Source: Mercenaria mercenaria (taxonomy: Eukaryota). From it: DNA of 64,000 nucleotides. The notes under the pieces were generated by a model. It was given only the letters and a program-made list of their open reading frames with translations, made no database searches and was not told the origin of the DNA. Below, piece by piece: positions 3,829 to 54,789 of this stretch (positions are counted from its first letter, which is position 1; every line of letters starts with the position of its first letter). Both the position numbers and the translations under genes were made by a program. The stretch spans positions 83,339,972 through 83,403,971 of the forward strand of contig NC_069364.1 of NCBI RefSeq assembly GCF_021730395.1, in the 5' to 3' direction.

Positions 3829-4529
3829 GTATTGTGATTTCTATTTATATCAGTTACCATTGTCTCAAGGCGAATGATTTCATTAAGGTAGTGGACCCAG
3901 AATTACAATTGACATACATGTATTCCACGGGATTACTTATTCTGTTTCTGTAACTTGGCATTATCTAGAAGCAAATATAGCTTAACATTTAAATGCCTTT
4001 CTGTCAAAAGCGGAGAATGCCTAAATCCCATATGGAGAATAGGCAGTTTGCTGGTTGCCATTAAATGGACCGTTGCCTAAAAGTTATTATTTTGTTAATT
4101 TTTTAAAGGTGTGGTTTGAGTTGAAAGTTCAAGCAATCTGTGTTTTATGAAATTGTAAAAACTGAAATGTGAAAGAAAATTACACAATATACATTTAGCC
4201 GTCTGTAACACATTGGCTTAGAACTTAATTTTTTTTCATCAGAATGATTATGTGATATTTTGTTTATGATAAGGTGTGGGAATAAAATCAAAATTTTTAT
4301 CCAGTTTTGAGAAAAAATAGTTTTCATACCCATATTTAATAGCCTATAAAACTGTTAGTAGATTGTTTTTGTTAAGAAAACTTGCAGATTCTTTTTATCA
4401 TAAGAATGTTTCACAACTTCAAGTGAGTTGATGAGTTTGTTGATTGATCTGATTATCAAAAAGTAAAAACCTCTTAATGTTGTATCTAGTAGTACCAGGT
4501 ATTTTTAAAATTTACTTTTCTAATTTCAG

Positions 4530-4726
4530 ATGTCGAGAGTGTCATGCAGGAAAATGAAAAGCTTAAAGATATGAAGCTTTGTAAAATATGTATGGATAAT
4601 GAACTCTGTATGACATTCTTACCTTGCGGGCACCTCGCCACGTGTGAAGACTGTGCACAGTCGGTGCAAGAATGCCCTATTTGTAGAAAGGGTATTCAAC
4701 AAAGAGTTAAAATATTCTGGGCTTAA
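4530..4726 (+). CDS. Terminal coding exon of an inhibitor-of-apoptosis (BIRC/IAP-family) protein, encoding the C-terminal C3HC4 RING finger (E3 ligase domain). Stop TAA at 4724-4726.
   Basis: Acceptor taatttcag at 4528-4529. It translates (D)[64 protein letters not shown], closely matching the IAP RING signature (compare XIAP ...[52 protein letters not shown]). It is in frame with the three upstream exons. Confidence 0.85.
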
Positions 4727-4883: not shown

Positions 4884-5661
4884 TTTTTATGCCCCCGAAG
4901 GGAGGCATATGGTTTTTGAACCGTCTGTCTGTCTGTCGGTCTGTCAGTCTGTCGGTGTGTCCGCAATTTTCGTGTCCGGTCCATATCTTTGTCATCGATG
5001 GATGGATTTTCAAATAACTTGGCATGAATGTGTACCACAGTAAGACGACGTGTCGCGCTAAAGACCCAGGTCCGTAGCTCAAAGGTCAAGGTCACACTTA
5101 GACGTTAAAGGTCATTTTTCATGATGTGCATTCGTGTCCGGTCCACATCTTTGTCATCGATGGATGGATTTTCAAATAACTTGGCATGAATGTGTACCAC
5201 AGTAAGACGACGTGTCGCGCGAAAGACCCAGGTCCGTAGCTCAAAGGTCAAGGTCACACTAAAATGTTAAAGGTCATTTTTCATGATGTGCATTCATGTC
5301 CGGTCCATATCTTTGTCATCCATGGATGGATTTTCAAATAACTTGGCATGAATTTGTACCACAGTAAGACGACGTGTCGCACGCAAGACCCAGGTCCGTA
5401 GCTCAAAGGTCAAGGTCACACTTAGACGTTAAAGGTCATATTTCATGATAGTGCATTGATGGGCATGTCCGGTCCATATCTTTGTCATTCATGCATGGAT
5501 TTTAAAATTATTGGGCATGAATGTGTACCACAGTAAGACGACGTGTCGCGCACAAGACCCAGGTCCGTAGGTCAAAGGTCCTAAACTCTAACATAGGCCA
5601 TAACTGTTCATTCAAAGTGCCATCGGGGGCATGTGTCATCCTATGGAGACAGCTCTTGTTT
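4884..5661 (-). mobile_element. Helentron-like non-autonomous element carrying a satellite array (165-bp unit x4). Same family as 41814-42259, inverted.
   Basis: Left end TTTTTATGCCCCCGAAGGGAGGCATA (a hairpin plus the reverse complement of CATAAAAA), then a (GTCT)n microsatellite at 4921-4965. The array runs 4970-5620 and the right terminus AGCTCTTGTT lies at 5651-5660. Confidence 0.6.
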
Positions 5662-18585: not shown

Positions 18586-19262
18586 GTGGGCCGGTGGTCT
18601 AGTGGTAACATGCTTGACTGCCAATCCAGAGGTCCAGGGTTTGAATCTTGGTCCAGGCACTGGAAATTTCTGAGATGCTCGGGCGCATTAAAGAACCAGA
18701 CTGTCTATTCGCAAAGAGCTAGCTTATTAGTTAGCCAGACAGTCCTGTATCTCTCTCTGTTCTGGGACCGCCTCGGTAGCCTAGTGGTAGAGCGTCCGCT
18801 TCGAGTGCGGGAGGCCGTGGGTTCGATCCCCAGCCGCGTCATACCAAAGACGTAAATAATGGTACTAGCAGCTTCCTCGCTTGATGCTCAGCATTAAGGG
18901 GATTGTGCTAGGACTGGTCAGCCCGGTGTCAGTATAATGTGACTGGGTGGGGTATCATGCCACGTGTCTACGGCGTGATATTCCAGTGAGGCAGCACTAT
19001 AAAGTTGGGCATTGTGCTCACTGCTACAAGTAGACACCGTCGTTTATATGACTGAAAAATTGTTGAAAAAGACGTTAAACTCGAACACACACACACACAC
19101 TCTCTGTTCTGGGGGCTTTATCTCACTCTGTCCCTCTGGTCAGATCGCTCTGTGTCTGTACTAGTAGAGGATGAATTTCGCGCCCTGTGCTATATGTAAA
19201 GCGCCTTTGAACGTGTTTATCATGAAAAGGGCGCTATATAAATCTGGTATAAAAAATCTCGT
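18586..19262 (+). mobile_element. tRNA-derived SINE (family 1), interrupted at 18767-19099 by a second SINE.
   Basis: Head GGCCGGTGGTCTAGTGGTAACA (A box) ... GGGTTTGAATCTTGG (B box). The body continues unchanged on the far side of the insert. Confidence 0.5.
18767..19099 (+). mobile_element. tRNA-derived SINE (family 2, about 330 bp with a (CA)n tail) flanked by a 14-bp target-site duplication.
   Basis: tRNA-like head TAGCCTAGTGGTAGAGCGTCCGCTTCGAGTGCGGGAGGCCGTGGGTTCGATCCCCAGCCGC and tail ACACACACACAC. The duplication CTCTCTGTTCTGGG lies at 18753-18766 and 19100-19113. A second copy lies at 33230-33545. Confidence 0.7.
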
Positions 19263-22504: not shown

Positions 22505-25500
22505 ACAAGAGCTGTCACAGGAGACAGCGCGCTCGACTATTTCGATGTTGGATAGTGAAACTGGGCACATCTGAGGAAACTAGAGCTGTCACTGGAGTGT
22601 TTAATGACTCCAATTGTGGATGAAGATATTACACAATAGCCTGAGTCTATGTCAAAAATATCAACTTAAAGTAATAAGAGAGGTAAAAATAAAATCTATC
22701 AAAACACTATATAAGTATATCCTAAGTAAAAATGGGCATAATTCATTAAATATTGGTGCCAGAGTTATGTACCTTGTGTCATATGGTGTGGGTGATGATG
22801 TTGAACAACTATTTTAAGTTTGAATCAAATCCATTCAGTAATAACAGAGACAGAGTGAAAGTGCATCAAAACTTTAACCTAAAATTCTAAGTAAAAAGGG
22901 GAATAATTCATGAAAAATTGTGCCAGAGTTATGCATCTTGTGTCATATGATGTGGGTGATGATGCTGAACAACTATTTTAAGTTTGAATCAAATCCATTC
23001 ACTAATAACGGAAGTAGAGTGAAAGTGCACCAAAACTTTAACCTGAAATTCTAAGTAAAAAGGGGGAATAATTCATAAAACAAGAGCTGTCCGTAAGACA
23101 GCCAAGCTCGACTATTCGAAATATTGTCACAGAAGCAGGAAATTATTACCCAAAATGTTAAATATCAAAAGAGTTTTAAGTTCGAAACGGGACATAATTT
23201 GACCAAAATGCATATCAGAGTTATGGGACTTGATGCTATCAACTAGTTTAATAACCCCGAAGAAACATGTTAAGTTTCAATTCCATATCTGCATTAGTTT
23301 TGGAGATAGTAACTTGCATGTAAAACTTTAAGCAGAATTTTCTAAGTCCAAAAGGGAGCATAATTTGCTCAAAATACATGTTAAGAGTTATGGAACTTGA
23401 CCCAGTGAGGTTGGTAACTGACCTAGAAAAAGAATAAATAAGTTTCAAAGCTATATGCCTTTTGGTAATAGCTGTATGTACTTGCACGCAAAACTTTAAC
23501 CAGGATTTTCTAAGTCCAAAAGGGTGCATAATTTGCCCAAAATACATGTCAGAGTTATGGGACTTGATTCTATCAACTAGTTTTATAACCCGAAGACACA
23601 TGTGAAGTTTCAATTTAATATCTGCATTAGTTTTGGAGATAGTAACTTGCATGTAAAACTTTAACCAGGATTTTCTAAGTCCAAAAGGGGGCATAATTTG
23701 CTCAAAATACATGTCAGAGTTATGGGACTTGGCCAGTGAGGTAGGTAATTGATCTAGAAAAAGAAAAAATAAGTTTCAAATCAATATGCCTTTTAGTAAT
23801 AGCTGTATGTACTTGCACGCAAAACTTTAACCAGAATTTTCTAAGTCCAAAAGGGGGCATAATTTGGCCAAAATACATGTCAGAGTTATGGGACTTGACC
23901 CAGTGAGGTAGGTAATTGATCTAGAAAAAGAAAAAATAAGTTTCAAATCTATATGCCTTTTAGTAATAGCTGTATGTACTTGCACGCAAAACTTTAACCA
24001 AAATTTTCTAAGTACAAAAGGGGGCATAATTTGGCCAAAATGAAGGTCAGAGTTATGGACTTGGTGCTATCAACTAGTTTTATAACCTCGAAAGACACAT
24101 GTGAAGTTTCAATTCAATATCTGCATTAGTTTTGGAGATAGTAACTTGCATGTAAAACTTTAACCAGAATTTTCTAAGTCCAAAAGGGGGCATAATTTGC
24201 TCAAAATACATGTTAGAGTTATGGAACTTGACCCAGTGAGGTTGGTAATTGACCTAGAAAAAGAATAAATAAGTTTCAAAGCTATATGCCTTTAAATGAT
24301 AGCTGTATGTACTTGCATGCAAAAACTTAACCAAGGTGTGACGCCGACGCTGACGCCGACGCCGACGCCAGGGTGAGTAGAATAGCTAGACTATTCTTCG
24401 AATAGTCGAGCTAAAAATGGTACCAGAGTTATGCACCTTGTGTCATATGATGTGGGTGATGATGTTGAACAATTGTTTAAGTTTGAATCAGATCCATTCA
24501 GTAATAACAGAGATAGAGTGAAAGTGCATAAAACTTTAACCTTAAATTCTAAGTAAAAAGGGGAATAATTCATGAAAAATTGTGCCAGAGTTATGCATCT
24601 TGAGTCATATGATGTGGGTGATGATGCTGAACAACTATTTTAAGTTTGAATCAAATCCATTCAGTAATAACGGAAGTAGAGTGAAAGTGCACCAAAACTT
24701 TAACCTGAAATTCTAAGTAAAAAGGGGGAATAATTCATGGAAAAAATGGTGCCAGAGTTATGCACCTTGTGTCATATGATGTAATAACGGAAGTAGAGTG
24801 AAAGTGCACCAAAACTTTAACCTGAAATTCTAAGTAAAAAGGGGGAATAATTCATGGAAAAAATGGTGCCAGAGTTATGCACCTTGTGTCATATGATGTG
24901 GGTGATGATGTTGAACAACTATTTTAAGTTTGAATCAAATCCATTCAGTTATAACAGAGATAGAGTGAAAGTGCATAAAACTTTAACCTTAAATTCTAAG
25001 TAAAAAGGGGAATAATTCATGAAAAATTGTGCCAGAGTTATGCATCTTGAGTCATATGATGTGGGTGATGATGCTGAACAACTATTTTAAGTTTGAATCA
25101 AATCCATTCAGTAATAACGGAAGTAGAGTGAAAGTGCACCAAAACTTTAACCTGAAATTCTAAGTAAAAAGGGGGAATAATTCATGGAAAAAATGGTGCC
25201 AGAGTTATGCACCTTGTGTCATATGAAGTAATAACGGAAGTAGAGTGAAAGTGCACCAAAACTTTAACCTGAAATTCTAAGTAAAAAGGGGGAATAATTC
25301 ATGGAAAAAATGGTGCCAGAGTTATGCACCTTGTGTCATATGATGTGGGTGATGATGTTGAACAACTATTTTAAGTTTGAATCAAATCCATTCAGTTATA
25401 ACAGAGATAGAGTGAAAGTGCATCAAAACTTTAACCTGAAAATCTAAGTGAAAAGGGGGGATAATTCATGAAATATTGGTGCCAGAATTATGGCCCTTAT

Positions 25501-25690
25501 GTCAGATGATGTGGATGATGATGAGGAATAAGTATTTCAAGTTTGAATCAAATCCATCAAGTAATTACAGAGATAAGTTGAAAAAAGAGAAAGTGCACCA
25601 AAACTTTAACCAAGGTGGGGACGCGGAAAGACGCCGACGCCGGGGCGAGTAGGATAGCTCTCCTTATACTTCGTATAGTGGAGCTAAAAA
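22505..25690 (+). mobile_element. Helentron-like element with a roughly 155-bp array, split by the nested element at 23079-24417.
   Basis: 5' end AACAAGAGCTGTCACAGGAGACAGCGCGCTCGACTATTTCGATG. The array units ..GGAATAATTCATGAAAAATTGTGCCAGAGTTATGCA.. resume immediately after 24417. 3' end GACGCCGACGCCGGGGCGAGTAGGATAGCTCTCCTTATACTTCGTATAGTGGAGCTAAAAATC. Confidence 0.6.
23079..24417 (+). mobile_element. Helentron-like element (alternating ~170-bp array) nested inside 22505-25690.
   Basis: 5' end AACAAGAGCTGTCCGTAAGACAGCCAAGCTCGACTATTCGAAATATTGTCACAGAAGCAGG. 3' end (GACGCC)n CAGGGTGAGTAGAATAGCTAGACTATTCTTCGAATAGTCGAGCTAAAAA. The insertion sits inside an A-run of the host monomer (AATTCATAAA^...^TGGTACCAGAG). 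Confidence 0.65.
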
Positions 25691-41469: not shown

Positions 41470-42409
41470 CCGGGTCATCTAATGACCACAGGATATTATT
41501 CCTTGATGTTTTACTGTTAAAGGTTCAAGCATTTTCTGTACCAAGGCAACAAGGACTTTCTAAGTCTAAAATTGGGCATAATTTGGCTAAAATGCATGTC
41601 AGAGTTATTAGACTTGATGCTATCACCTAGTTCTATAACCCTGAAGACACAATCATGTGACATTTCAAATCAATATATCTGCATTAGTTTTGGAGGTAGT
41701 AACTTGCATCAAAAACTTCGACCAGGATTTTCTAAGTTCGAAAGAGCCAAAATACATGTCAGAGTTATGTGTCTTGACCCAGTGAGGCTGGTAATTGACC
41801 TAGAAAAGGAAAAAACAAGAGCTGTCTCCGTAGGATGACACATGCCCCCGATGGCACTTTGAATGAATAGTTATGGCCGATGTTAGAGTTTAGGACCTTT
41901 GACCTACGGAGCTGGGTCTTGCGCGCGACACATCGTCTTACTGTGTCACACATTCATGCATAGTTATTTTAAAATCCATGCATGAATGACAAAGATATGG
42001 ACCGGACATGCCCATCAATGCACTATCATGAAAAATGATCTTTAATGTCTAAGTGTGACCTTGACCTTTGAGCTACGGACCTGGGTCTTGCGCACTGCAC
42101 GTCGTCTTACTGTGGTACACATTCATGCCAAGTTATTTGAAAATCCATCCATCGATGACAAAGATATGGACCGGACACGAAAATTGCGGACAGACCAACA
42201 GACTGACAGACCGACAGACGGTTCAAAAACTATATGCCTCCCTTCGGTGGCATAAAAAGAAGTTTCAAAGCAATATGCCTTTAAATGATAGCTATACATA
42301 CTAGCATGCATAACTTAACCAAGATGTGACACGGATGCCAAAGCCAGGGTGAGTAAAATAGCTCACACTATTCAAAGTCAGACAATTTTTCGAATAGTCA
42401 AGCTAAAAA
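41470..42409 (+). mobile_element. Helentron-like element of the 23079-24417 family. It is 5'-truncated and split by the nested insertion at 41814-42259.
   Basis: Array units at 41530-41813. The 3' end resumes at 42260 with TTTCAAAGCAATATGCCTTTAAATGATAGC...CAGGGTGAGTAAAATAGCTCACACTATTCAAAG...TTCGAATAGTCAAGCTAAAAATAG. Confidence 0.55.
41814..42259 (+). mobile_element. Helentron-like element nested in 41470-42409. Same family as 4884-5661, in opposite orientation.
   Basis: 5' end AACAAGAGCTGTCTCCGTAGGATGACACATGCCCCCGATGGCAC. 3' end GACAGACCGACAGACGG...CTATATGCCTCCCTTCGGTGGCATAAAAAG. It is inserted in an A-run (GAAAAAGGAAAAA^). Confidence 0.65.
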
Positions 42410-42883
42410 TAGTGGTCATCAACTAACCATAAGACTAATTTCACCTAGTCACACAATATTATGGTCAATCTAATCTGATCAGACAATCATTCTTACAAGT
42501 TTGATATCATTAAACCCAAACTGTCTTCCACTTATTGAAAATAAATTTTTTTAAGTCATGAGGTCACAGTAACCTTTAACCTACTGAATCCCAAAATTTC
42601 ATCAACTATCCCACAGTTGGCAACAGTGTTCTTTAGTTAGTAACTAGAAAGTTCTTAAGTTAGTAACTAGAAACCATTTCCAGTCTTGAGATCAATGTCA
42701 CCTTAACCCATGTCCTAATGACACCAAAATAAACAAACTTGGTAATCTACTGACCACAGGATATCATCCTTCTAATGTTTAACAAAAGCAGGTCTAAGTA
42801 CTCTTCATAACTGACAAACAAGAGGGCCATAATGGCCCTATATCGCTCACCTGTCATCATTGCACTTAACGAGAAGAAGGTCA

Positions 42884-43837
42884 AACAAGAGCACCGCCTT
42901 GCGGGTGCTGACGCTCATCTGATTTTTCGTATAATAGAAATATTGTCCTACCAATGATTTTCTAAGTCTAAAAAGGGTCATCATTCTTGCAAAAAGCAGG
43001 ATAGAGTTATGTTTCTTGATGTACAGCGTCCGCTTATGATGGTGAAAAACTGTTGCAAGTTTTAAAGCAATAGCTTTGATAGTTTACGAGAAAAGCTGAC
43101 TTAAACATAATACTCAACCAAGAAAACACGGTCAGCTTATGATGGTGAACAAGTGTTGCAAGTTTCAAAGCAATAGCTTTGATAGTTTAAGAGAAAAAGT
43201 TGACCTAAACAAAAAACTTAACCAAGAAATCTGATATTTTCTAAGTCCAAAAGGGGCCATAAATCTTGAAAAAACCAGGATGGAGTTATGTTTCTTGCTG
43301 TTCAGGGTCAGCTTATGATGGTGACGAGTGTTGCAAGTTTTAAAGCAATAGCTTTGATAGTTTAGGAGAAAAGCTGACCTAAACATAAAACTTAACCAAG
43401 AAAACTGATTTTCTAAGTCCAAAGGGGGCAATAATTCTTGCAAAAAGCAGGATGGAGTTATGTTTCTTGATATACAGGGTCAGCTTATGATGGTGAACAA
43501 GTGTTGCAAGTTTCAAAGCAATAGCTTTGATAGTTTAGGAGAAAAGTTGACCTAAACATAAAACTTAACCAAGAAATCTGATATTTTCTAAGTACAAAAG
43601 GGGCCATAAATCTTGCAAAAAGCAGGATGGAGTTATGTTTCTTGCTGTACAGGGTCAGCTTATGATGGTGAACAAGTGTTCCAAGTTTCAAAGCAATAGC
43701 TTTGATAGTTTAGGAGAAAAGCTGACCTAAACATAAAACTTAACCAGGCAATGCCGACGCAGACGCCGACGCTGACACCGATCAAGTGATGACAATAACT
43801 CATCATTTTTTTTCCAAAAAATCAGATGAGCTAAAAA
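42884..43837 (+). mobile_element. Helentron-like element (about 175-bp array x5). It is preceded at 42816-42883 by a solo 5' terminus of another element.
   Basis: 5' end AACAAGAGCACCGCCTTGCGGGTGCTGACGCTCATCTG. 3' end (GCCGACGC)n ...CAAGTGATGACAATAACTCATCATTTTTTTTCCAAAAAATCAGATGAGCTAAAAATC. At 42816 lies ACAAGAGGGCCATAATGGCCCTATATCGCTCACCTG. Confidence 0.6.
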
Positions 43838-43857
43838 TCATAATCAAGATCAATCAA

Positions 43858-44080
43858 AAGAATCATGAGAAAATATAGTTGAAATTTTCCTAAAGGTACA
43901 GATATGTCAAAATACACCTATACATTGGAGGTATCATCCATGTTGTACCACAGGAAAGTGGTCTCGGTTTTTCCCTACAGCCAATAATAAAAAAGTTACT
44001 AAATAAGCTATTTATAGTAACATAAAAGGGAAGTAATTAAAAAAAAATTATTGTAAGGGAACAAAAGAAGGATCTGCCAA
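43858..44080 (-). repeat. Copy of the 290-bp interspersed repeat, in reverse orientation.
   Basis: Its reverse complement aligns to 10965-11190. Confidence 0.5.
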
Positions 44081-44082
44081 AT

Positions 44083-44475
44083 AACAAGAGCTGTCCGTAA
44101 GACAGCCAAGCTCGACCATTCGAAATATTGTCACAGAAGCAGGAAAATATTACCCAAAATGTTAAATATCAAAAGAGTTTTAAGTTCGAAAGGGGACATA
44201 ATTTGACCAAAATGCATATCAGAGTTATGGGACTTGATGCTATCAACTAGTTTTATAATCCTGAAGAAACATGTTACGGTAAGTTTCAATTCCATATCTG
44301 CATTAGTTTTGGAGATAGTAACTAGCATGTAAAACTTTAACCAGAATTTTTTAAGTCCAAACGGGGGCATAATTTGCCAAAAATACATGTTACAGTTATG
44401 GAACTTGACCCAGTGAGGTTGGTAATTGACGTAGAAAAAGAATAAATAAGTTTCAAAGCTATATGCCTTTAAATT
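44083..44475 (+). mobile_element. 3'-truncated Helentron-like element (23079-24417 family).
   Basis: 5' end AACAAGAGCTGTCCGTAAGACAGCCAAGCTCGACCATTCGAAATATTGTCACAGAAGCAGGAAAATATTACC. There is no microsatellite or hairpin end. Confidence 0.5.
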
Positions 44476-44779
44476 AGTCATAGCCTCTATGCCGTCTAAA
44501 CAGCTGATCGCATGTATTGAAATGCTGCCGTTTGACGTCATAGGCCACTCCTGTCAAAAAATGTCAATATAAGAAGGAGAATTTAGAATGTGCAATGCAA
44601 CTCCATGCAAGGATTTCGGAAAATTTTGTATAGAAATAAATAAACATAAATTGTCCTTTTTTATATTGAATACCATTTGAATCAGTGTAGATGCTTCTAA
44701 TTTGCAAGAAAAACGTTTTCTTCACCGCTGTAATTCTGTCATGTTTTCAAACAGCGGCCGCCATTTTAGGAATTTCTCT

Positions 44780-44812
44780 ACATTGTAATGACGTCACAAA
44801 TATGCAAATCAC
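44780..44812. promoter_or_regulatory. CRE palindrome (TGACGTCA) immediately followed by an octamer motif (ATGCAAAT). Candidate promoter or enhancer module.
   Basis: gtaATGACGTCAcaaatATGCAAATcactgg at 44782-44812. A second TGACGTCA lies at 44529-44536. Confidence 0.25.
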
Positions 44813-46239
44813 TGGGGTCAAACGTGCGGTTTCCCACGAGTTTCTTTCAAACTGTGGTGGGAAATGTCTGTTTGTTGTAGAACATAAAACCTTAACTTTA
44901 TTTCTAAAGATAATCAGAAAATAGTGATGAATGTTTTTTTTTAAATCTGTTGTGTTACTATCCGGGTATGGTAAAAGTGGCCGCTCTTGATTCTTAATTG
45001 ACCATAAATCAAAATGCCAGGGTCATAATTATGCGTGTAAAGAAAATGAGGCACTTAACGGGTTTATTGTTTACGATACGCATCTTACCAGTACCGTAAA
45101 TTTATAAACAACTGAGGGAAGCATGTAATTAATTTTTTTCATAATATACTAAGGTGTTAGTTAAAACAAATTTATTTGAACTCGATTTTGATAAAAGCTT
45201 CAAGTTTATTTGACCAACTCTCGAGTCCGCTTCCTGAAAAAGCATGTCTACTAGTGTCATATATGAGAAGATGCGGTCGTGACCTCAGTTGGGCTTGAAA
45301 CTATGAACTGCGACCGACACCTTAACCACTAGACCAGCCCCCCCCTTACGAAGATGTTGACATCAAGTTGTTTTCCATCAGGAGTTTGAGTAACATGATA
45401 TTAGAGCAGGAGCAAGCGCTGTGTGCTCAAACTTCATAACCATTGACTCTTCGAAATCGATGTCTACGGTTAGAAATATTATATAAATTTATATATATAA
45501 AGTAAATACAGAAATTGACATAACTCATCCCTACCAATTTATATCAAAAACGTAAAATTTGTTTCACCATTCACTTGTCTTAATGACAGTCAGATACGGA
45601 CTTGAGGCCCGGATCCAGCTCGTGCTCCCCCCTCCCCCAACCTCGTTGACTGAGAAGTGATCTATACTCATTATATTAACTCAAAATGCACCAAAGGCCA
45701 CCATTTCATGTCTGTATTTCAAAACTTCCAAGGGGAAGAGCCCCCTGATCCCCCTATAATGAGGGGGATGTCTCACCAGTCTGTATTAAAAAAATATATC
45801 CAGGCGAGAGATCCCCTAACCCCAAGCCCCTTATATGGGCAGAGGTCCCCTCCAATACCTACCGGCTGTCAGCGCTATGCGCCTCGACGGTGACATCTTC
45901 GTTATAGACTGGTGCGTAATTAATTGTAAATTGTGTTTACGAGACAGGAACGCTAATTTAAAGCATATTCGTCTGAGAGAAGCCGATTTTTTTTTAATAC
46001 TTCATCCAATACCAGAATAAGAGTAAAATTAAAACACATGTTTCCGTGTGTTAACATCTGCAGAATGTCTCATGGACTCGGACATAAACAATCCCTCGGG
46101 AAATTGCAAATAATATATATGTAATATGATTAGAATAAACTTGCTGCTTGCACTATCTCTATGGAAATTTCCGTTCTCTTAAAGTCATACTTGTATACTA
46201 ACATTTTCAAATTAGGACGGGAAAATCACATAAATTTAA

Positions 46240-46480
46240 AAATTAAATAAGCAGGCGGTCATTAACGAAGGGGTCGCATGGAAGACACGTACAGATTTGC
46301 CGCCAAAATTTTGAGGTAACCAATAGCTAAAACGGTACCAAGAATTACATGGCTCTCCCCATTCTATGAGCAAGACCATGTTGATCGTCAGGGAAAACAT
46401 ACGCCTCGCCCGGGACTCGAACTCCCGACCCCGAGATCCGGAGATCTGCGTTCTTCTCCCTATTGAGCTAGGCGGGCGGG
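46240..46480 (-). mobile_element. tRNA-derived SINE (a different family).
   Basis: On the reverse strand: GCCTAGCTCAATAGGGAGAAGAACGCAGATCTCCGGATCTCGGGGTCGGGAGTTCGAGTCCCGGGCGAGGCG, with A and B boxes. The six-frame ORF at 46236-46631 reads through it. Confidence 0.45.
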
Positions 46481-48467
46481 CTAACATCATGTTGAAGAAA
46501 AAATTTATATATGTGTGAAAATAGTGCAAGGTTCCTTGCCTCAAAGACGCAGAACTTTGAGGGAAAGTGAGCGTCCGGGCGTGTATATGTGTGTGGGTGG
46601 GGAGGGGGAGGGGAGTAGTCGTTAATATCACTGACTTAAGTGACTTCTGTTCAACATGAAAATAAGTTCAGCTGTACAGTAATTATTTTTTATAGTTTCA
46701 TTCTTAATAACCAAGACATTTATTCAACGTCCTAGATCTACAAGAAATTAAACATCGATGTTTACTTGTCCCTAAATTTTCATATTTTCATTTTTTAAAC
46801 CTTACTGACTCATAATTTATTATACTATGCACGTATGTGTAATATGTAATATTACGAGTCGAAAATTAAGTAAAGGCATGATAACGCATAAAAAATTGTT
46901 TCTGGTATCCCGACCTGCCTTAAATTTTTGGTCCGACCCTAAATGTTTTTATGGCCTTGGAGAATGCACTTTTTATGCTTTAAACATGTTCAGTGATGTT
47001 AGAAATCAATTTACTGATGCTGATACTCTAGCGGCATAACCCCATTATTTGTATTCATTTTTTGACAAAAAAAAAATAATTTCCGAAAAATCTCCCTTAA
47101 TAAAAAAAAAAATCCCAAACAAAAAATCCGACCTAGATCTACCTACCCTAATATTTTTAGCATGTTACCGGAAACAAATATGTTTCTTAAGGCCAAACTA
47201 TAAAATACAATTTCTTTATCAAGATGGACTGCTTCTTCAAAACGGAACTCGCCTCCTCTATTAAAAAGTGAGTTGTAATATATTTCTAGACAACTACGTA
47301 ACATGTCTATGTTACAAATAAACTGTCCGGAGAAAGAGCCCTGACAAATTGACAATGTATTGTAGAAGTTCAGTATACTGAGTACAACCCGAATGCGCCT
47401 CATGTAAATTTGCATGAAGCTCTCGGCCTTCTTACGTCATTTGTCTCATACGTCACCCGTTTCGGAGAAGTGAAACAGTATCAACAAGGACGCGAACATA
47501 GAGAATAACCATATTCTATTTATTTATTTATTAAAACTGTTGGAAAAATGATTGCTAAAGGAACTGGAAATAATTCAATAAGGATACTTAACTACAGGTT
47601 ATCTTTGAACCATGCTTTTGGAAATGATGTTGAATTCAATGAATCAACGTTTCAAGAGCATGGTGCGATCGGTGCCTGGATTTCATCGGGATGATCGACG
47701 AAGTCCGACTTATGATGTCGTCGAGGAGACAGACATTTAAAATGAAATTTGTTTGTGAATTGTAAATTTTGGAGGGATCACAACTTTGGAAGATTAACAG
47801 TGAGTCAGTTTACCTTATAAATGTTCATATAAATTTCTTTTTAAAATAACTTTTGTTTATTCAGAACAGGACAACTTCGCAACTATCAAAATTAGTTTCG
47901 AGCCGCTCGTGAGATTTGGAATTTGATTCATATCCCTTAATTATCCCGCGGCAATGTAATTACTTAACATTTTCATTGACCTACATAATTTGCATATTTC
48001 CCATGATACCTTGTAGTCAAATTCAACATGGCGTCCCGCATCGATTTGGATGCGCGATTGATACGGAAAAACACTACTAAAAGTAATCATCCGAACATTG
48101 CGGGAAGAGTCGACTTCATAGAAATGTAGAAAAAGTGGCAATCAGTTAGCGAAGTAAAAATTTTTTTGGCAAAATGCGTATATAGAACATACATTAGCTG
48201 AAACCTTATATTGCATATTTTTGAATGGAAGGGAATAGAGCTCTGACTGAGGCCCGATATGGGTAGCCGAATTCAGAGCTCTATGTATAGATCTACCTTT
48301 AAATGAGAGCTGTACTTGCATGCAGAAACTTAATGTTATGTGACTTGACCCAGTGAGCTTGGTACCGTAGATACCCATGTATAACGCACAGTTTTTTGAC
48401 CCCGGGACCACCCCCGAATCGTGGGTGCGCATAATACACAGGTATAGACAATTTTCCAACTTCAAAA

Positions 48468-49932
48468 CAACTTTGTGGTTATAACACACTAAATAGTTGT
48501 TGTTCTTTATTCTATATAAAATTGACCTATTTCCAATGACCGCAGCACACATCAGGACCCATTTTAAATTTCTGTAACTTACATTTTCTTGAAGAATATT
48601 GTCAGTGCTAACTAAAAATCAAAAGAAAAGTGGGGGTCATGTTTGATGCAAGAAAAATAATTTCAGTCAAACACACAAACTGCAAAATCAGCTAAAAAAT
48701 GAGACCGCAAATTATACTGGTGGTGTATGATCTAAGTTTCCATGAAAAATTTTGTCATGGTGTTATTTCATGATCAAAATGCTATCTTCATGTCAAGCAT
48801 AGATCTGTCATGTGATTTTACCAAAAAAAATGCAAAGAAAATAAGAAAAATAGCTGTACACAGCGAAAAAACTGAGGACTATTTGTATCCGCCATTATGC
48901 GACTACCATTTTTTTTCGCGCCATTTTTCTATTTAGTGTCTGTATGCCTATAAGAAAAACTTTTTTCTCTGACAGTGTGCCAATTTCATTTGAAATGTAC
49001 AAGAAACCCAAATGCATGAAGAAATACAAGGTTTTAGCTTGATATCAACTGTTTCCAAGTTTTTATGGCATTTTCAGTACCATAAGACAAAGCGTCAGAT
49101 TTTGTCAAAAATAGCTGTCGCGACATAATGTTGAAGCAGTTACCCTAAATTCAGCCTTGTTTTGCCCTGTTTTGACATTTTCTACTCTGATCTGCATGCA
49201 AATTACACATTTAAACTGTTATATATCTTCACTTTTACCTCTGATGGACAGAAAATAGCAGTCAGTAGCCTATAAATATGCAGTTTTTGAAAAAAATACA
49301 CCCAAAACAGTGAAAATGTGATATTTTTGGGTTTTATCCTCATTTTCAACAAAATTGCAATTAATTTGTCATTTTCTATCAGATTCTAATCAAACTAGCC
49401 CATTTCCACCATTATCTGGCCAGATTTCATTTTTTACCAATGTCATCTTATAGGTTATAACACACTAAATAGTTGTTGTTCTTTATTCTATATAAAATTG
49501 ACCTATTTCCAATGACCGCAGCACACATCAGGACCCATTTTAAATTTCTGTAACTTACATTTTCTTGAAGAATATTGTCAGTGCTAACTAAAAATCAAAA
49601 GAAAAGTGGGGGGTCATGTTTGATGCAAGAAAAATAATTTCAGTCAAACACACAAACTGCAAAATCAGCTAAAAAATGAGACCCCAAATTATACTGGTGG
49701 TGTATGATCTAAGTTTCCATGAAAAATTTTGTCATGGTGTTATTTCATGATCAAAATGCTATCTTCATGTCAAGCATAGATCTGTCATGTGATTTTACCA
49801 AAAAAAATGCAAAGAAAATAAGGAAAATAGCTCTACACAGCGAAAAAACTGAGGACTATTTGTATCCGCCATTATGCAACTACCATTTTTTTCGCGCCAT
49901 TTTTCTATTTAGTGTCTGTATGCCTTGTTACC
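48468..49932 (+). repeat. Tandem duplication of a roughly 978-bp unit, 1.5 copies (unit 1 48468-49445, partial unit 2 49446-49932).
   Basis: 48468-48958 and 49446-49932 are more than 97% identical, including the duplicated ORFs 48742-48936 and 49719-49952. Confidence 0.75.
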
Positions 49933-50574
49933 GATGTGCGCCATTTTGGTAAAGGGAAACTACTCCCCAGGCTTACTGTCACCGCTAAAATCTAAGATTG
50001 CCGTTACGTTCCGTAAATGATCGAATGGTTTATTTTTCTTTCAAACAAAATTAATTTCATATAAATTTAAAAGTATTTTGATGAAAGAAATGTTAATAAA
50101 TCACAAAAATTATGATACTAATTAAAGATCGAGAATTATCTTTAACCGAGATTAGACTGTGAACAACATAACTGACACGAGGTGACACGTTAATTGCCGG
50201 TAATTACTGGCTATTTGATCGTGACAAAAAGACTATCACACCTTTTGTTATTCAGGTTTGAATTGAGAAGCTCATGTCATTTTGAAAGATACCATTCCAA
50301 AATATTGAATCAGCTGCTGTTTATTTATTCAAAATAGTTAATTAAAAAGGTAAAACAACAAATAAAACAATATTTTACTGGTTTTATTTTCGAGAAAACA
50401 AAAATCGATAGTACCGCAAGACCGATGCTGCTCTCCACCGCGGAAATAAAATTTATTACCGGTGTCGATGTAAACTCTACTTTCGTTTTCCATCCACCTC
50501 AAAATTGACCAAAAATGTTTTTTTCCCAGGATTTTGGGCCAAAATCAGGAGTGTGCATTATACATGGGTGCACA

Positions 50575-51225
50575 TTATACATGGGTTTCTACGGTAATTG
50601 ATCTAGAAAATGAAAAAATAAGTTTCAAATCTATATGCCTTTAAGTAATACCTGTATGTAATTGCACGTAAAACTTTAACCAGGATTTTCTAAGTCCAAA
50701 GGGGGCAAAATTTGGCTAAAATGTAGGTCAGAGTTATGGGACTTGATGCTATCAACTAGTTTTATAACCCCGGAGAAACATGTTAAGTTTCTATTCAATA
50801 TCTGCATTAGTTTTGGAGATAGTAACTTGCATGTAAAACTTTAACCAGAATTTTCTAAGTCTAAAACGGGGCATAATTTGCCCAAAATGAAGGTCAGAGT
50901 TATGGGACTTGGTGCTCAACTAGTTTTATAACCCCGAAGACACATGTGAAGTTTCAATTCAATATCTGCATTAGTTTTGGAGATAGTAACTTGCATGTAA
51001 AACTTTAACCAGAATTTTCTATGTCCAAAAGGGAGCATAATTTGCTCAAAATACATGTCAGAGTTATGGAACTTGACCCAGAAAAAGAATAAATAAGTTT
51101 CAAAGCTATATGCCTTTAATTGACAGCTGTACTTGCATGCAAAAACTTAACCAAGGTGTGACGCCGACGCCGATGCCAGGGTGAGTAGAATAGCTAGACT
51201 ATTCTTTGAATAGTCGCGCTAAAAA
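50575..51225 (+). mobile_element. 5'-truncated Helentron-like element (23079-24417 family). First member of a head-to-tail run.
   Basis: 3' end GTGTGACGCCGACGCCGATGCCAGGGTGAGTAGAATAGCTAGACTATTCTTTGAATAGTCGCGCTAAAAA abuts the next element's AACAAGAGC. Confidence 0.55.
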
Positions 51226-52117
51226 CAAGAGCACTGCAATGCAATGCAAATGCAGAGCAATATACACACAAAACAAAGTATTATGACCTTTGACCCCTAA
51301 GTGTGACCTTGACCTTGAAGTGAGCCATCCAAAACATGCGCTCTGCACATCGTTTCAATGAGGTGAACATTTGTGTCAGGTTTCTTTGAAATCCTTCAAG
51401 GGGTTCAAGAGTTACAGAGCAGAAGGGAAATTGCTAACCAACAGACAGAAAGACAGACAGACACCAAGGCGATAACATAATATGTCGAGATCTTATGGTG
51501 ATACAAGTTGTGTGCAAGTTTGGTTAAAATCAAATCATAAATGAAGCTGCTATTGTGCAGACAAAGTCAAAATAGCTAATTCTGGCCCTTTCAGGAGTCA
51601 TAACTCTGGAACCCATTATGGGATCTGGCCAGTTCAAGAATGGAACCAAGATCTTATGGGGACACAAGTTTTTGTGCAAGTTTGATTAAATTCATATCAT
51701 AAATGAAGCTGCTATTGTGCAGACAAGGTCAAAATAGCTAATTCTGGCCTTATCAGGGGCCATAACTCTGGAACCCATAGTGGAATCTGGCCAGTTCAAG
51801 AAAGGAACCAAGATCTTATGGTGATACAAGTTGTGTGCAAGTTTGGTAAAAATCAAATCATAAATAAAGCTGCCATTGTGCAGACAAGGTCAAAATAGCT
51901 AATTTTGGCCCTTTCAGGGGTCATAACTCTTGAACCGATAATGGGATCTGGCCAGTTCAAGAAAAGAACCATAATCTTATGGTGATACAAGTTGTGTGCA
52001 AGTTTGGTTAAAATAAAATCATAATTGAAACCATTATCATGCAGACAAGAAACTGTGGACGGACGACGGACGATCACAAAAGCTCACCCTGTCACTACGT
52101 GACAGGTGAGCTAAAAA
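51226..52117 (+). mobile_element. Composite Helentron-like element. It has a 5' end, a 160-bp module with its own microsatellite and degenerate hairpin (18205-type), then about 4 copies of the 9907-11318-family array and a second microsatellite, hairpin and CTAAAAA end.
   Basis: The element reads ACAAGAGCACTGCAATGCAATGC..., then (CAGA)n CACCAAGGCGATAACATAATATGTCGAG, then the array (reverse complement of the 9997-10600 units), then GGACGGACGACGGACGATCACAAAAGCTCACCCTGTCACTACGTGACAGGTGAGCTAAAAA. Confidence 0.55.
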
Positions 52118-52960
52118 CAAGAGCACTGCCTTGCAGGTGCTGATGCTCATCTAATTTTGTTGTATAACAGAAATATTGTCCTACCCATGATTTTCTAAGT
52201 CTAACAAGACTCGACTTTTCTCAGTGCTTGACTCTGAATTAGAGCTTTGCCAGTAAAAAAAAATCCAGGTTAAAAAGGGACATAATTCTGTCAAAATTCA
52301 AATCTGAGTTATGGGAACTGTGTCTCCTAGTGTAGACTTTGATAGAAAATAGCTATTTTGAGTTTCAAGTCAAAAGCTTTAATAGTAACAGAGATATTTA
52401 ACTTTATAAAAAAAAAAAATAAAAAAATTCTAAGTTAAAAAGGGGCATAATTCTGTCAAAATTCAAATCAGAGTCATGGGGATTGTTTCTCCTGGTGTAG
52501 ACTTTGATGGTAAATAAGTATTTTAAGTTTCAAGTCAAAAGCTTTGATAGTAACAGAGATATTTGACTTTATCAAAAATTTTAACAAAAAATGCTATGTT
52601 GAAAAGGGGCATAATTCTGTCAAAATTCAATCAGAGTTGTGGGGATTGTTTCTCCTGGTGTAGATTTTGATGGTAAATAAGTATTTTAAGTTTCAAGTCA
52701 ATAGCTTTGACAGTAACAGAGATATTTGACTTTATCAAAAACTTTAACCAAAAATTCTAAGTTAAAAAGGGGCATAATTCTGTCAAAATGCAAATCAGAG
52801 TTATGGGGATTGTTTCTCCTGGTGTAGACTTTGATAGTAAACATCTATTTTAAGTTTCAAGTCAATAGCTTTGATAGTAACAGAGATATTTGACTTTATC
52901 AAAAACTTTAACCAACGCCGACGCCGGGGCGAGTGCAATAGCTCTACATTTTCTTCAAAA
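52118..52960 (+). mobile_element. Helentron-like element (about 175-bp array x4) whose 3' hairpin is fused directly to the next element's array.
   Basis: 5' end ACAAGAGCACTGCCTTGCAGGTGCTGATGCTCATCTAATTTTG. 3' end ACGCCGACGCCGGGGCGAGTGCAATAGCTC, followed without CTAAAAA by the array of the 42884-family. Confidence 0.5.
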
Positions 52961-53491
52961 AGGGCCATCATTCTTGCAAAAAGCAGAATAGAGCTATGTT
53001 TCTTGATGTACAGCATCCGCTTATGATGGTGAAAAACTGTTGCAAGTTTTAAAGCAATAGCTTTGATAGTTTATGAGAAAAGCTGACCTAAACATAAAAC
53101 TTATTTTCTAAGTCCAAAAGGGGCAATAATTCTTGCAAAAAGCAAAATACAGGGTCAGCTATTGATGGTGAACAAGTGTTGCAAGTTTCAAAGCAATAGC
53201 TTTGATAGTTTAGGAGAAAAGTTGACCTAGACATAAAACTTAACCAAGAAATCTGATATTTTCTAAGTACAAAAGGGGCCATAAATCTTGCAAAAAGCAG
53301 GATGGAGTTATGTTTCTTGCTGTACAGGGTCAGCTATTGATGGTGAACAAGTGTTGCAAGTTTCAAAGCAATAGCTTTGATAGTTTAGGAGAAAAGCTGA
53401 CCTAAACATAAAACTTAACCAGGCAACGCCGAAGCCAACCAAGTGATGACAATAACTCATTTTTTTTCCAAAAAATCAGATGAGCTAAAAA
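52960..53491 (+). mobile_element. Helentron-like element (42884-43837 family), 5'-truncated or recombinant.
   Basis: 3' end GCAACGCCGAAGCCAACCAAGTGATGACAATAACTCATTTTTTTTCCAAAAAATCAGATGAGCTAAAAAAG. Confidence 0.5.
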
Positions 53492-54789
53492 AGATATATA
53501 CCATATTTTGCAAGGCTATCACTTGTCCAAGCTTTGGGAACACCAGTCCAGATTTGCCTAGTTTCACTATAACTGGTATTTGTACTCCAATACCATACTC
53601 ATGTAACTTTGTTTCCCCTTTCAGACTTGCTGCAATAGAAAAACAAGCAATTTCAATTAATTTTGTATTCTCCAACAAATACGAGTAAGTTTTGTCCCTG
53701 CAGTGTTATAAAACTACAAATTGTTTTTAGCAAAAGCACATGTCTCCCTATACCACTTTTTTTAACCTGAAATGTTAATTGATAAGCAATATCCAGCCAT
53801 ATCAAAGATATTTTGCTATATAACTTCATTTTTTGCAAAATAAGAAGAAAATGTACAAAACTATGTAAGAAATTGTATGTAGTCCATATCAACAACAAAA
53901 ATTAAACAAAAACTGTTTGTAAACATGTATTCCCCAAATAGTGACCCCAGGAGTATTATAATTTACTAAGGTATTTAGTACACTGTCACACTGGCTTTGA
54001 TGCTCAAAGAATGTTCTTACGGAAAGACATACTGATAAGCCACATACAGGGAGACATAATTGTAGGACAGACTTAAGGTAAGACATGTTGATACTTTACC
54101 TTTAGCCTGCTAGCGGCAAGTGATTCTGCCTTTGAGATCAGTGCTAGCTGATCCATGCAGGCTGATCATGGTCTATATATACTGTTCACTATTCAGTCAG
54201 TAAACTTTAAGTGAACACCCTTCAAATAATAAATAGTATTGCCCAAAGTGAATGACAGACCAGTCTATTTTTGAAATTTTGCAGGGTAAAGGAATTTTAT
54301 AGAATGAACAAGACTTAAAACAGGAATAACTGATAGAGGCATTTGACTACTGACCTTATACTGTAACCTTGACCTTAAAATGACCCAGCAGCAATATAGG
54401 TTCTGCTAATTTATAATGAGGTGAACATTTTAACAGTAGGCCTTGAATACTGAAAGTCAACAATTACATTTCCAGCAGCACTATATACTTTTAGGCTAGG
54501 TTAAACCAGGTGTACTCTCATACTTGACTTTGAGTGCCAGGTGTATTCAATAAAGGAAACTTACACAAAATATGGGTATAAACAGCAGATATTTAAGAAT
54601 AAGGTTAGTATGTGTACATATAGCATTGTTACTCATATAAATATGTTAAACTCTCACAGCTTAAAATACAGAGACTGTTTGCCTTTTGTATATCAAAAAT
54701 GTTTTTTTACTCTTTTATGTTTTATTTCTTATACCTGGGTGAAATAAAAGTTTTGTTCTATTCTATTCTGTAATAGCTTTTTTTCAGTC

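Follow-up and report, generated by a model that had tools for sequence, protein, structure and literature searches.

Helentron-associated elements insert into TT or T-rich targets, without target-site duplication (TSD) and with variable numbers of terminal T's, according to the accessible text of two reports (Thomas et al. 2014, PMC4067079; Vojvoda Zeljko et al. 2020, PMC7492417), and the same text already documents their insertion into other repeats and transposable elements. Direct adjacency of elements is only anticipated in the available part of Thomas et al. (PMC4067079), by analogy with Helitrons. In the published canonical orientation, a Helentron reads T-run, AGC, subterminal inverted repeat (subTIR) with an additional inverted repeat (IR), microsatellite, repeats, second subTIR, stem-loop, CTCTTG, and TT.

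We analyzed a nested arrangement in a 64-kb window, which is the whole stretch of DNA under study (Table 1). The region very probably consists of a non-autonomous Helentron-type transposon (HINE) of the pearl/DTC84 architecture known from bivalves, with a satellite-like 164-bp array, into which a younger, related HINE has entered in the same orientation, in an oligo-A tract at a monomer boundary. In both the inserted and the host element, all the structural hallmarks of non-autonomous elements associated with Helentrons are present. On the + strand the order of parts is (A)A-CAAGAG-palindrome-subTIR, tandem monomers with periods of 145-175 bp, and microsatellite-IR/subTIR hairpin-GCT-AAAAA. 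The canonical Helentron strand is the reverse complement of this, so A|A here corresponds to T|T there and the canonical-strand ends of these elements read TTTTTAGC...CTCTTG.

Table 1. Coordinates of the nested, host, and abutting elements in the window
Feature	Position	Strand	Description
Outer (host) HINE/pearl-like element	22505-25690	+	One non-autonomous Helentron-type element; 5' to 3': AA+CAAGAG 5' end, decayed palindrome and subTIR, unique spacer, 164-bp array, degenerate GACGCC-like microsatellite, decayed hairpin, GAGCT+AAAAA
Host array left of insertion	22722-23076	+	164-bp array, ~2.2 monomers, terminating ...AATAATTCAT
Left junction A-run	23077-23080	+	4 A; could be host or insert
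Inserted HINE core	23081-24412	+	CAAGAG, palindrome GCTGTC-CGTAA-GACAGC, subTIR, 167-bp array (333/499-bp higher order), (GACGCC)5, IR+subTIR hairpin, GAGCT
Insert terminal palindrome	23086-23102	+	Canonical 3' stem-loop of HINE, beside CTCTTG (other strand); -7.8 kcal/mol, z -4.1
Insert subTIR arm 1	23105-23128	+	24 nt, 88% complementary to 24389-24412
Insert microsatellite	24340-24369	+	(GACGCC)5
Insert IR + subTIR hairpin	24383-24413	+	Canonical 5' subTIR with complementary IR; -10 kcal/mol, z -4.5
Right junction A-run	24413-24417	+	5 A, the modal tail length of the family
Host array right of insertion	24418-25600	+	In phase (TGGTACCAGAG...); 447-bp higher-order unit (164+166+117)
Second host	41548-42409	+	5'-truncated element, same family as first insert; last monomer split at 41815/42259
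Second nested HINE	41816-42258	+	162-bp monomers, (GACAGACC)n microsatellite, hairpin TATGCC..GGCATA, 5 A
Element of same family as second nested HINE	5660-4884	minus
HINE in A-run of 340-bp repeat	42886-43837	+	175-bp array; repeat at 42819-44083; insert-free paralog 11318-10976, minus strand
Head-to-tail junction between two different HINEs	51221-51231	+	GCGCT-AAAAA-CAAGAGCAC
Second head-to-tail junction	52113-52123	+	GAGCT-AAAAA-CAAGAGCAC
Third nested HINE	52205-52956	+	164-bp array, both terminal structures truncated; inside element 52118-53492 at TCTAA^AAAGGG

The structural features of HINEs recur one by one in the insert. The subterminal inverted repeats, which in HINEs measure about 11-15 bp and lie near both ends, correspond to the pair at 23105-23128 and 24389-24412 (24 nt, 88%), whose perfect core of 15 nt reads GCTCGACTATTCGAA. 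The short IR that pairs with the canonical 5' subTIR is present as two 14-nt arms (24383-24396 and 24400-24413) that are 93% complementary around a 3-nt loop, and in the second nested insert the IR/subTIR takes the palindromic form (z -3.2). The stem-loop near the canonical 3' terminus lies 5 nt from that terminus, a microsatellite stands by the subTIR+IR flank with central repeats in fixed orientation, and the boundaries, where HINEs are expected to show variable runs of 2-5 T's at TT or T-rich insertion sites, carry A-runs of variable length on the + strand. A palindrome follows CAAGAG in 12 termini belonging to at least six families, with stem sequences that differ; the hairpin sequence varies among families, yet it stays palindromic beside the invariant CAAGAG and GCT-A5. 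Counts of the terminal motifs, 8 and 16, exceed the 0.55 and 1.6 that chance would give. The subTIR pair of the outer element, as read from the sequence, is decayed but recognizable. As originally predicted, the insert is younger than its host, an order that follows from the nesting, and the hairpins differ in the same sense (z -4.1/-4.5 in the insert versus a decayed -2.0/-0.3 in the host).

The host array has a TRF period of 164 bp over 22722-23080, which corrects an earlier estimate of 155 bp, and a 447-bp higher-order unit over 24413-25565. The 447-bp units are 98.7% identical, and portions of the array may have expanded after the insertion. At the left junction the host reads ...GGGGGAATAATTCAT-AAAA (23077-23080), followed by CAAGAGCTGTCCGTAAGACAGCC... 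from 23081, and at the right junction the insert reads ...GAATAGTCGAGCT up to 24412 and AAAAA (24413-24417), followed by the host TGGTACCAGAGTTATGCACC from 24418. Both insert termini are complete, and the host is in monomer phase on either side.

To compare this filled site with empty paralogs, we built a chimeric empty site from 50 nt of left and 50 nt of right flank, with every A retained and the insert left out. It matched four neighboring monomer junctions at 94.5-96% identity over 100 nt with 1 gap and was in register with nine paralogous junctions, and the order of the higher-order variants (B then A) was the same on both host sides. The proposal that a second element splits the host array is therefore borne out, since both flanks belong to the same tandem array and, when joined, match neighboring monomers at up to 96%. 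The accompanying claim that the host resumes exactly stands for the phase, while at the nucleotide level the fit is exact only to within the variable A tract. The junction falls within the most variable tract of the monomer, between TTCAT and TGG, which is 6-8 nt long in the paralogs (GGAAAAAA, GAAAAAT, TAAATAT, GAAATAT) and holds 9 A's in the filled copy, where the GG seen in the nearest paralogs is missing. Relative to those paralogs, the host is 2-4 nt short on the assumption that five of the A's came with the element. The four GGAAAAAA paralogs do not count as independent, because they are recent copies of one another within the 447-bp units.

The comparisons of filled and empty sites place the insertions at A-runs, in line with the original prediction of an oligo-A target. 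The empty site carries an A-run of at least five at the insertion point in all four such comparisons, in cases 1 and 2 in only some of the paralogs, and the probability of this placement by chance is 1.6e-5 (product of per-host site fractions). On the canonical strand these sites are T-runs, so the TT preference expected for Helentrons agrees with the available text of PMC4067079 and PMC7492417. The absence of an obvious duplication held as far as bases other than A are concerned: the paralog alignment gave an in-phase host with no duplicated non-A base, and a search for a consistent multi-bp TSD, which had been named as the finding that would speak against the prediction, detected no flanking duplication with a base other than A in the 11 elements whose two ends could be delimited; an A-only duplication, which would give the same A counts, may be present. 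Left A-runs range from 2 to 7 and right A-runs from 4 to 7 with a mode of 5; two or more A's stand before CAAGAG at 11 of 12 5' ends, and an A5 tail follows 21 of 28 genuine 3' ends (window and metagenome contigs, with chance bacterial matches discarded by reading).

These terminal A's bear on the possibility that we are dealing with cut-and-paste MITEs, in which a DDE-type transposase would duplicate an AA target and the A's at the two ends would represent a 2-bp TSD. This was the original reading of pearl and DTC84, with AA proposed as the TSD in PMC3879986, and it accommodates both the A's ahead of CAAGAG and the A's that always follow the 3' end. Among 11 elements and 4 empty sites, counting A's fits an AA TSD plus AAA in the element as well as it fits no TSD plus five A's. 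As three models ('1+4 A's in element, target A|A', '0+5', and 'AA TSD + 3') predict identical A totals, the cut position within the A-run cannot be fixed from these counts. However, the inverted repeats are subterminal, set in by 24 nt at one end and by 5 nt at the other; the outermost sequences (CAAGAG versus GCT-A5) are asymmetric and unrelated and do not form TIRs. Moreover, the A surplus over empty paralogs at the three array-nested junctions is 1-3 in case 1, 5 at 41816-42258, and 2 at 52205-52956, and this variability argues against a fixed-length TSD. In other taxa, Helentron partners whose ends are more than 95% identical have been linked to the same architecture, and no TSD was found at empty sites, as the accessible text of PMC4067079 and PMC7492417 describes. 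We therefore did not class the elements as MITEs and regard AA duplication by a DDE-type transposase as quite improbable.

A further question is whether any insertion took place at this locus, given that array recombination, an assembly error, or a composite formed elsewhere and transposed whole might produce a similar picture. The window is packed with similar arrays, the interruption at 44473-50592 does break the monomer phase, and two-array composite elements are known in C. gigas. Against this stand the complete insert termini, the continued host phase and variant order, and three further independent cases of the same geometry in the window, which together make such an origin very improbable. 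A master copy may have acquired the nested element first and then been transposed as a composite, but the same insertion event would still be required, only earlier.

The second of the cases in the window, predicted at 41814, is real. Its junctions read CTAGAAAAGGAAAAAA (to 41815), then CAAGAGCTGTCTCC ... GGTGGCAT (to 42253) and AAAAA (to 42258), then GAAGTTTCAAAGC, and the second host array provides eight empty paralogs, CTAGAAAAAGAA(T/A)AAATAAGTTTCAAAGC. For the element at 42886-43837, the paralog at 11318-10976 was rejected as a clean empty site, as it matches on the left and its 55-80 nt on the right are too diverged for base counting. Exactly five A's separate the partners at each of the two head-to-tail junctions in the window, and three elements follow one another without a break. 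Unrelated contigs yielded additional nested and head-to-tail cases. Elsewhere in the window, we observed an IAP-like RING exon at 4527-4715, a (GTCT)n microsatellite at 4923-4961, and an (ACGG/ACGC)n microsatellite at 62711-62756; a single Logan contig matching the RING exon at 89% amino-acid identity had only that exon in common (79% nucleotide identity) and held no empty site for the neighboring element.

A SINE-like origin, with a short A-tail and integration at TT|AAAA-like sites through a LINE endonuclease, agrees with the 3' A-run, the A-rich targets, and the co-orientation with the A-run, but is barely credible, as the tail is fixed near 5 A rather than long and variable, the junctions have no 7-20 bp TSD, the 5' ends, which carry hairpins and subTIRs, are conserved and precise, and no element has a tRNA/7SL/5S-like head or Rfam match (ARAGORN and Rfam gave one tRNA-Ser only, elsewhere in the window).

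We thus return to the reading of a HINE inserted into an older HINE. Because the 64-kb window contains no Rep/helicase open reading frame (no ORF exceeds 154 aa), we infer rolling-circle transposition from the literature, and the link to a Helentron enzyme is suggested by structural resemblance together with published work. From what is established for HUH Rep/helicase rolling-circle transposons and from Thomas et al. 2014, the following mechanism can be proposed. Acting in trans, a Helentron Rep/helicase(/endonuclease) would recognize the subterminal inverted repeats and hairpins, nick in the terminal T-run, and peel off one strand as far as the terminus with the stem-loop and CTCTTG. The peeled strand would then be joined into a target T-run, where an unstaggered cut would leave no duplication, and a cut anywhere in the T-run would make the number of terminal T's or A's differ between copies. 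Resident elements would probably attract further copies, because they are A-rich on the + strand and themselves end in A5, leading to nested and head-to-tail arrangements. That insert and host share one orientation was not counted as independent evidence of strand-specific integration, since A-runs are about 4-6 times commoner than T-runs on the + strand of the hosts (35 versus 6 runs of at least 4 in the outer element) and co-orientation is therefore expected. It is tempting to speculate that elements preferentially reuse the exact old boundary between a resident A-tail and its flank and not just any A-run; we consider this unlikely, but if it were true, each resident HINE would provide, in its terminal tract, a self-made landing pad. 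Pads of this kind would build clusters of satellite-like arrays, a concrete way in which dispersed transposon arrays could grow into long satellite DNA.

The nested insertion is real, but it is ordinary, already published behavior of these elements, and our analysis adds little that is new beyond confirming, in what is probably a bivalve genome, that pearl/DTC84-type HINEs enter oligo-A/T tracts strand-specifically and without recognizable duplication. Nested copies in tandem arrays do, however, bring built-in paralogous empty sites with which the ends of Helentrons can be defined. Nesting and head-to-tail chaining through A-tails also indicate how elements pile up into satellite-rich blocks, which should be annotated as stacks of separate insertions and not as single long satellites. 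The accessible text of PMC4067079 and PMC7492417 holds no mention that we found of HINE-in-HINE array nesting or of A-tail head-to-tail chains, and a search of paper full text for the terminal sequences of the elements returned unrelated primer matches only.

Compared with canonical Helitrons, the elements share the apparent lack of a TSD, a hairpin set back by a few bases from one terminus, direct adjacency, and a vast excess of non-autonomous over autonomous copies. They differ in that canonical Helitrons have the form 5'-TC...hairpin...CTRR-3' and insert between A and T, whereas here the canonical-strand termini are T5-AGCTC... and ...CTCTTG-TT, subTIRs are present, and the target is TT or a T-run; assignment to canonical Helitrons was accordingly rejected. 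The likeness to HINEs and DINE-1-like elements (PMC4067079) and to Cg_HINE of Crassostrea gigas (PMC7492417), as far as the available text describes them, extends to the subTIRs, the IR by one subTIR, the microsatellite, the central satellite-like tandem repeats, the stem-loop at the other end, the T-run termini of variable length, the TT or T-rich insertion without a recognizable TSD, the use of other repeats as targets, and the fixed orientation of the repeats to the flanks. In contrast to the HINEs of that text, no autonomous partner was seen in our window. Among the C. gigas arrays compared (mostly CL1), monomer and flank sequences are unlike those here, and only short boxes such as AAACTTTAACC are common, too little to assign the window to a described Cg_HINE.

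The layout is also like that of pearl of C. virginica (Gaffney et al. 2003, as described in papers citing it) and of DTC84, an element of Donax trunculus (PMC3879986). In this literature, AA is taken as a TSD, the elements are named MITEs, and the core repeat sequence is not that of the elements here. The same literature nevertheless describes a left flank, core repeats of about 160 bp, an ACGG or related microsatellite, and a right flank in + orientation, with AA at both ends. DTC84 further shares an 11-bp inverted motif that is subterminal in the left flank and terminal in the right flank, and the 5' end at 42884-42897 reproduces its published left-flank primer (AACAAGAGCACCGCTGGGCG; AACAAGAGCACCGC) without a mismatch.

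We found that the element at 22505-25690, a pearl/DTC84-like non-autonomous Helentron-type element (HINE), carries a second complete element within its tandem array and that the host array is continuous across it, which bears out the element-in-element insertion of the original prediction, as the insert has complete termini and the host is in phase on both sides. The interior of the outer element consists of a unique spacer, the array, and a degenerate GACGCC-like tract. The 155-bp array period first proposed was imprecise, as TRF gives 164 bp left of the insert (22722-23080); to the right (24413-25565, 95% matches) it gives a 447-bp higher-order unit of 164-, 166-, and 117-bp monomers, the 117-bp unit being an internally deleted monomer. 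A chimera of the 50 nt left of the insert's CAAGAG and the 50 nt from its first tail A onward aligned through the joint with four nearby monomer junctions (94.5-96% identity, one gap), and in a MAFFT alignment nine paralogous junctions were in register with it. Moreover, the monomer variants flanking the insert ('B' before, 'A' after) match the order elsewhere in the array.

Exact resumption of the host holds for monomer phase but not for the junction itself, which lies in the monomer's most variable part, a tract between TTCAT and TGG/TTG that reads GGAAAAAA, GAAAAAT, TAAATAT, or GAAATAT and spans 6-8 nt in paralogs, whereas the filled copy has nine A's (four left, five right) and no G. Only 1-3 surplus A's are due to this insert, and if the element supplied five, as elsewhere, the host copy would lack 2-4 nt. 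Being copies of one another, the four nearest paralogs provide a single witness; neighbouring 447-bp units are 98.7% identical, which indicates a recent expansion of the outer array, possibly later than the nested insertion.

Coordinates of the nested elements and other features
Feature	Position	Strand	Remarks
Outer element	22505-25690	+	starts AA-CAAGAGCTGTCACAGGAGACAGC, ends ...GTATAGTGGAGCT-AAAAA
First insert	from 23081; GAGCT end 24412; AAAAA 24413-24417	+	second complete element within outer array
(GACGCC)5 of first insert	24340-24369		microsatellite
Second insert	41815/41816	+	host is a 5'-truncated relative of first insert
Third insert	52205-52956		164-bp-array element; 5' palindrome and 3' subTIR lost
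Fourth insert	42886-43837		in A-run of X repeat (42819-44083)
X repeat, ~340 bp	42819-44083		
X repeat	11318-10976	-	
X repeat	19615-19266	-	
IAP-like C3HC4 RING	4527-4715	+	terminal exon; ends ...LCKICMDNELCMTFLPCGHLATCEDCAQSVQECPICRKGIQQRVKIFWA-stop
tRNA-Ser (CGA)	18770-18841	+	sole Rfam/ARAGORN match in 64 kb

The first insert shows each of the structural features of a HINE: CAAGAG, palindrome GCTGTC-CGTAA-GACAGC, subterminal inverted repeat (subTIR), about six 167-bp monomers, (GACGCC)5, a 14-nt hairpin, GAGCT, and AAAAA, in this order. Its subTIRs (23105-23128 and 24389-24412) are 88% complementary over 24 nt, and its short inverted repeat (IR) forms a hairpin at 24383-24413. In the orientation published as canonical, subTIR, IR, and microsatellite form the left flank and subTIR and palindrome the right, so the + strand here is the reverse complement and a site between two A's corresponds to one between two T's. 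Both insert hairpins fold far better than shuffled sequences (z, -4.1 and -4.5), whereas those of the outer element have decayed (z, -2.0 and -0.3), which fits the predicted greater age of the host. Terminal motifs are enriched in the window (8 versus 0.55 expected and 16 versus 1.6 expected), and among at least six families stem sequences differ while palindromy is kept beside invariant CAAGAG and GCT-A5, the pattern expected if the enzyme reads structure plus a short terminal motif. The first 14 nt of the DTC84 left-flank primer from Donax trunculus, AACAAGAGCACCGCTGGGCG (PMC3879986), coincide exactly with the 5' end at 42884-42897, tying these elements to the pearl/DTC84 group, which was at first termed MITEs with an AA target-site duplication (TSD) (PMC3879986) and afterwards moved to the non-autonomous Helentrons. 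No open reading frame (ORF) in the 64-kb window exceeds 154 aa, and no Rep/helicase is present. Some boxes recur in the monomers of array families that differ in other respects (AAAACTTTAACC, TTCTAAGT..AAAAGGGG.ATAATT, and CAGAGTTATG; e.g., 22889-22912, 23343-23372, and 43240-43262), and C. gigas CL1 monomers include short versions of AAAACTTTAACC.

The pattern noted earlier at 41814 was confirmed against eight empty paralogs, which read CTAGAAAAAGAA[T/A]AAAT-AAGTTTCAAAGC; the filled site reads CTAGAAAAGGAAAAAA, the insert CAAGAGCTGTCTCC...GGTGGCAT-AAAAA, then GAAGTTTCAAAGC, a surplus of five nucleotides with the first host base changed from T to G. This insert belongs to the family of element 5660-4884 (-), whose tail has seven A's. 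As far as CTAAGTCTAA, the host of the third insert (52118-53492) agrees with the 5' region of element 42886-43837; it resumes at AAAAAGGGCCATCATTC, a surplus of 2 over the empty paralog TCTAAAAAGGG. In this insert CAAGA is joined straight to CTCGAC and ..CATTTTCTTC straight to AAAAA, both deletions taking out exactly the structured terminal parts. For the fourth, the empty paralog 11318-10976 (-) has AGAAAAAAT at the insertion place, its right side being too diverged for base counting. An A-run of at least 5 is present in empty paralogs at all four sites (in only some paralogs for the first two), and multiplying the shares of such positions in the four hosts gives 1.6e-5.

Directly seen are complete insert termini, the host in phase to left and right, A-run targets, no duplication with a non-A base, and variable A counts. 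In 11 elements with both ends identified (two coordinates set by eye), 2-7 A's stand left of CAAGAG and 4-7 (mode, 5) right of GCT/CAT, usually followed by T; AA precedes CAAGAG at 11/12 5' ends, A-poor context included. Of the 66 stretches matched in a metagenome scan for GAATAGTCGAGCTAAAA, some 30 are genuine 3' ends of homologous elements, in which both the hairpin and the microsatellite are present, and two contigs from one sample (L037 and L064) are nearly identical to the 3' end of the first insert. When genuine ends were judged by reading and chance bacterial matches discarded (n = 28), the pooled tails were A5 in 21/28, A4 in 2, A6 in 3, and A7 in 1, with T next in about 60%. The empty-site alignments agree with the predicted Helentron-like insertion between A's, and flank pairs in the 11 elements share only A's; a duplication of A's alone would give the same A counts. 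Three models, namely one 5' A plus four 3' A's with a target between two A's, five 3' A's, or an AA TSD plus three A's, all predict the host run plus 5, and none fits exactly, the surplus at nested sites being inconsistent (1-3, 5, and 2).

Judging from Thomas et al. (2014) and from what is established for transposons with an HUH Rep/helicase, a Helentron protein would act in trans, nick inside the terminal T-run, displace the strand as far as the stem-loop/CTCTTG end, and transfer it to a target T-run without staggered cuts. On host + strands A-runs are 4-6 times more frequent than T-runs, a sufficient cause for the co-orientation of all nested copies with their hosts.

Elsewhere, a 6.1-kb unrelated insert (44473-50592), in which no LTR, terminal inverted repeat (TIR), or convincing ORF was detected, interrupts the array carried by the element at 44085. 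Its flanks form a 52-bp direct repeat (44421-44472/50593-50644; 90% identity), so monomer phase is not preserved, and the interruption could have arisen by deletion or by a long duplication, or could represent fragments of two separate elements; within it lies a 976-977-bp tandem duplication (48468-49925). The X repeat has a HINE-type 5' end (AAA-CAAGAG plus palindrome GGGCCAT.ATGGCCC), no tandem array, and the end GCC[A/G]AATAA(A); it has its initial 40 nt in common with 5' modules of 145-bp-array elements at 8337, 14640, 60905, and 62985. HINE 4884-5660 (-) lies about 170 bp downstream of the RING stop codon, and the sole database relative of that exon is one Logan contig (89% aa).

Exact head-to-tail HINE junctions occur at 51221-51231 and 52113-52123, with five A's each between GCT and CAAGAG, in an unbroken chain (44083-53492) of an X repeat ending GCCAAATAA at 44084 and HINEs 44085-51225, 51226-52117, and 52118-53492. 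On metagenome contig L035, two copies of one family are joined head-to-tail via eight A's, the second without the CA of CAAGAG; on L022 (1-190), an ACGG-type HINE ends within the AAAA^CCTTAACC box of another; and L064 (937-1042) holds a mini-element in which the 5' module is joined to the 3' module, the array being absent. These contigs (L022, L035, and L064) hold close relatives and are probably invertebrate DNA in marine samples. The two junctions suggest, as a rather unlikely idea, a preference for re-using resident A-tails as landing pads, and satellite-rich clusters would be seeded in this way; of the readings considered, it alone is somewhat new. Helitrons are known to lie directly next to one another, and Thomas et al. 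(2014, PMC4067079) anticipated the same for Helentrons; PMC4067079 and PMC7492417 already describe T-rich/TT sites, no TSD, variable terminal T's, and Cg_HINEs inserted in other transposable elements and repeats. Our results support the nested elements as a further instance of this known kind, with the caveat of an A-only duplication, and the A surplus at nested sites is variable, just as the number of terminal T's is in the HINEs described there.
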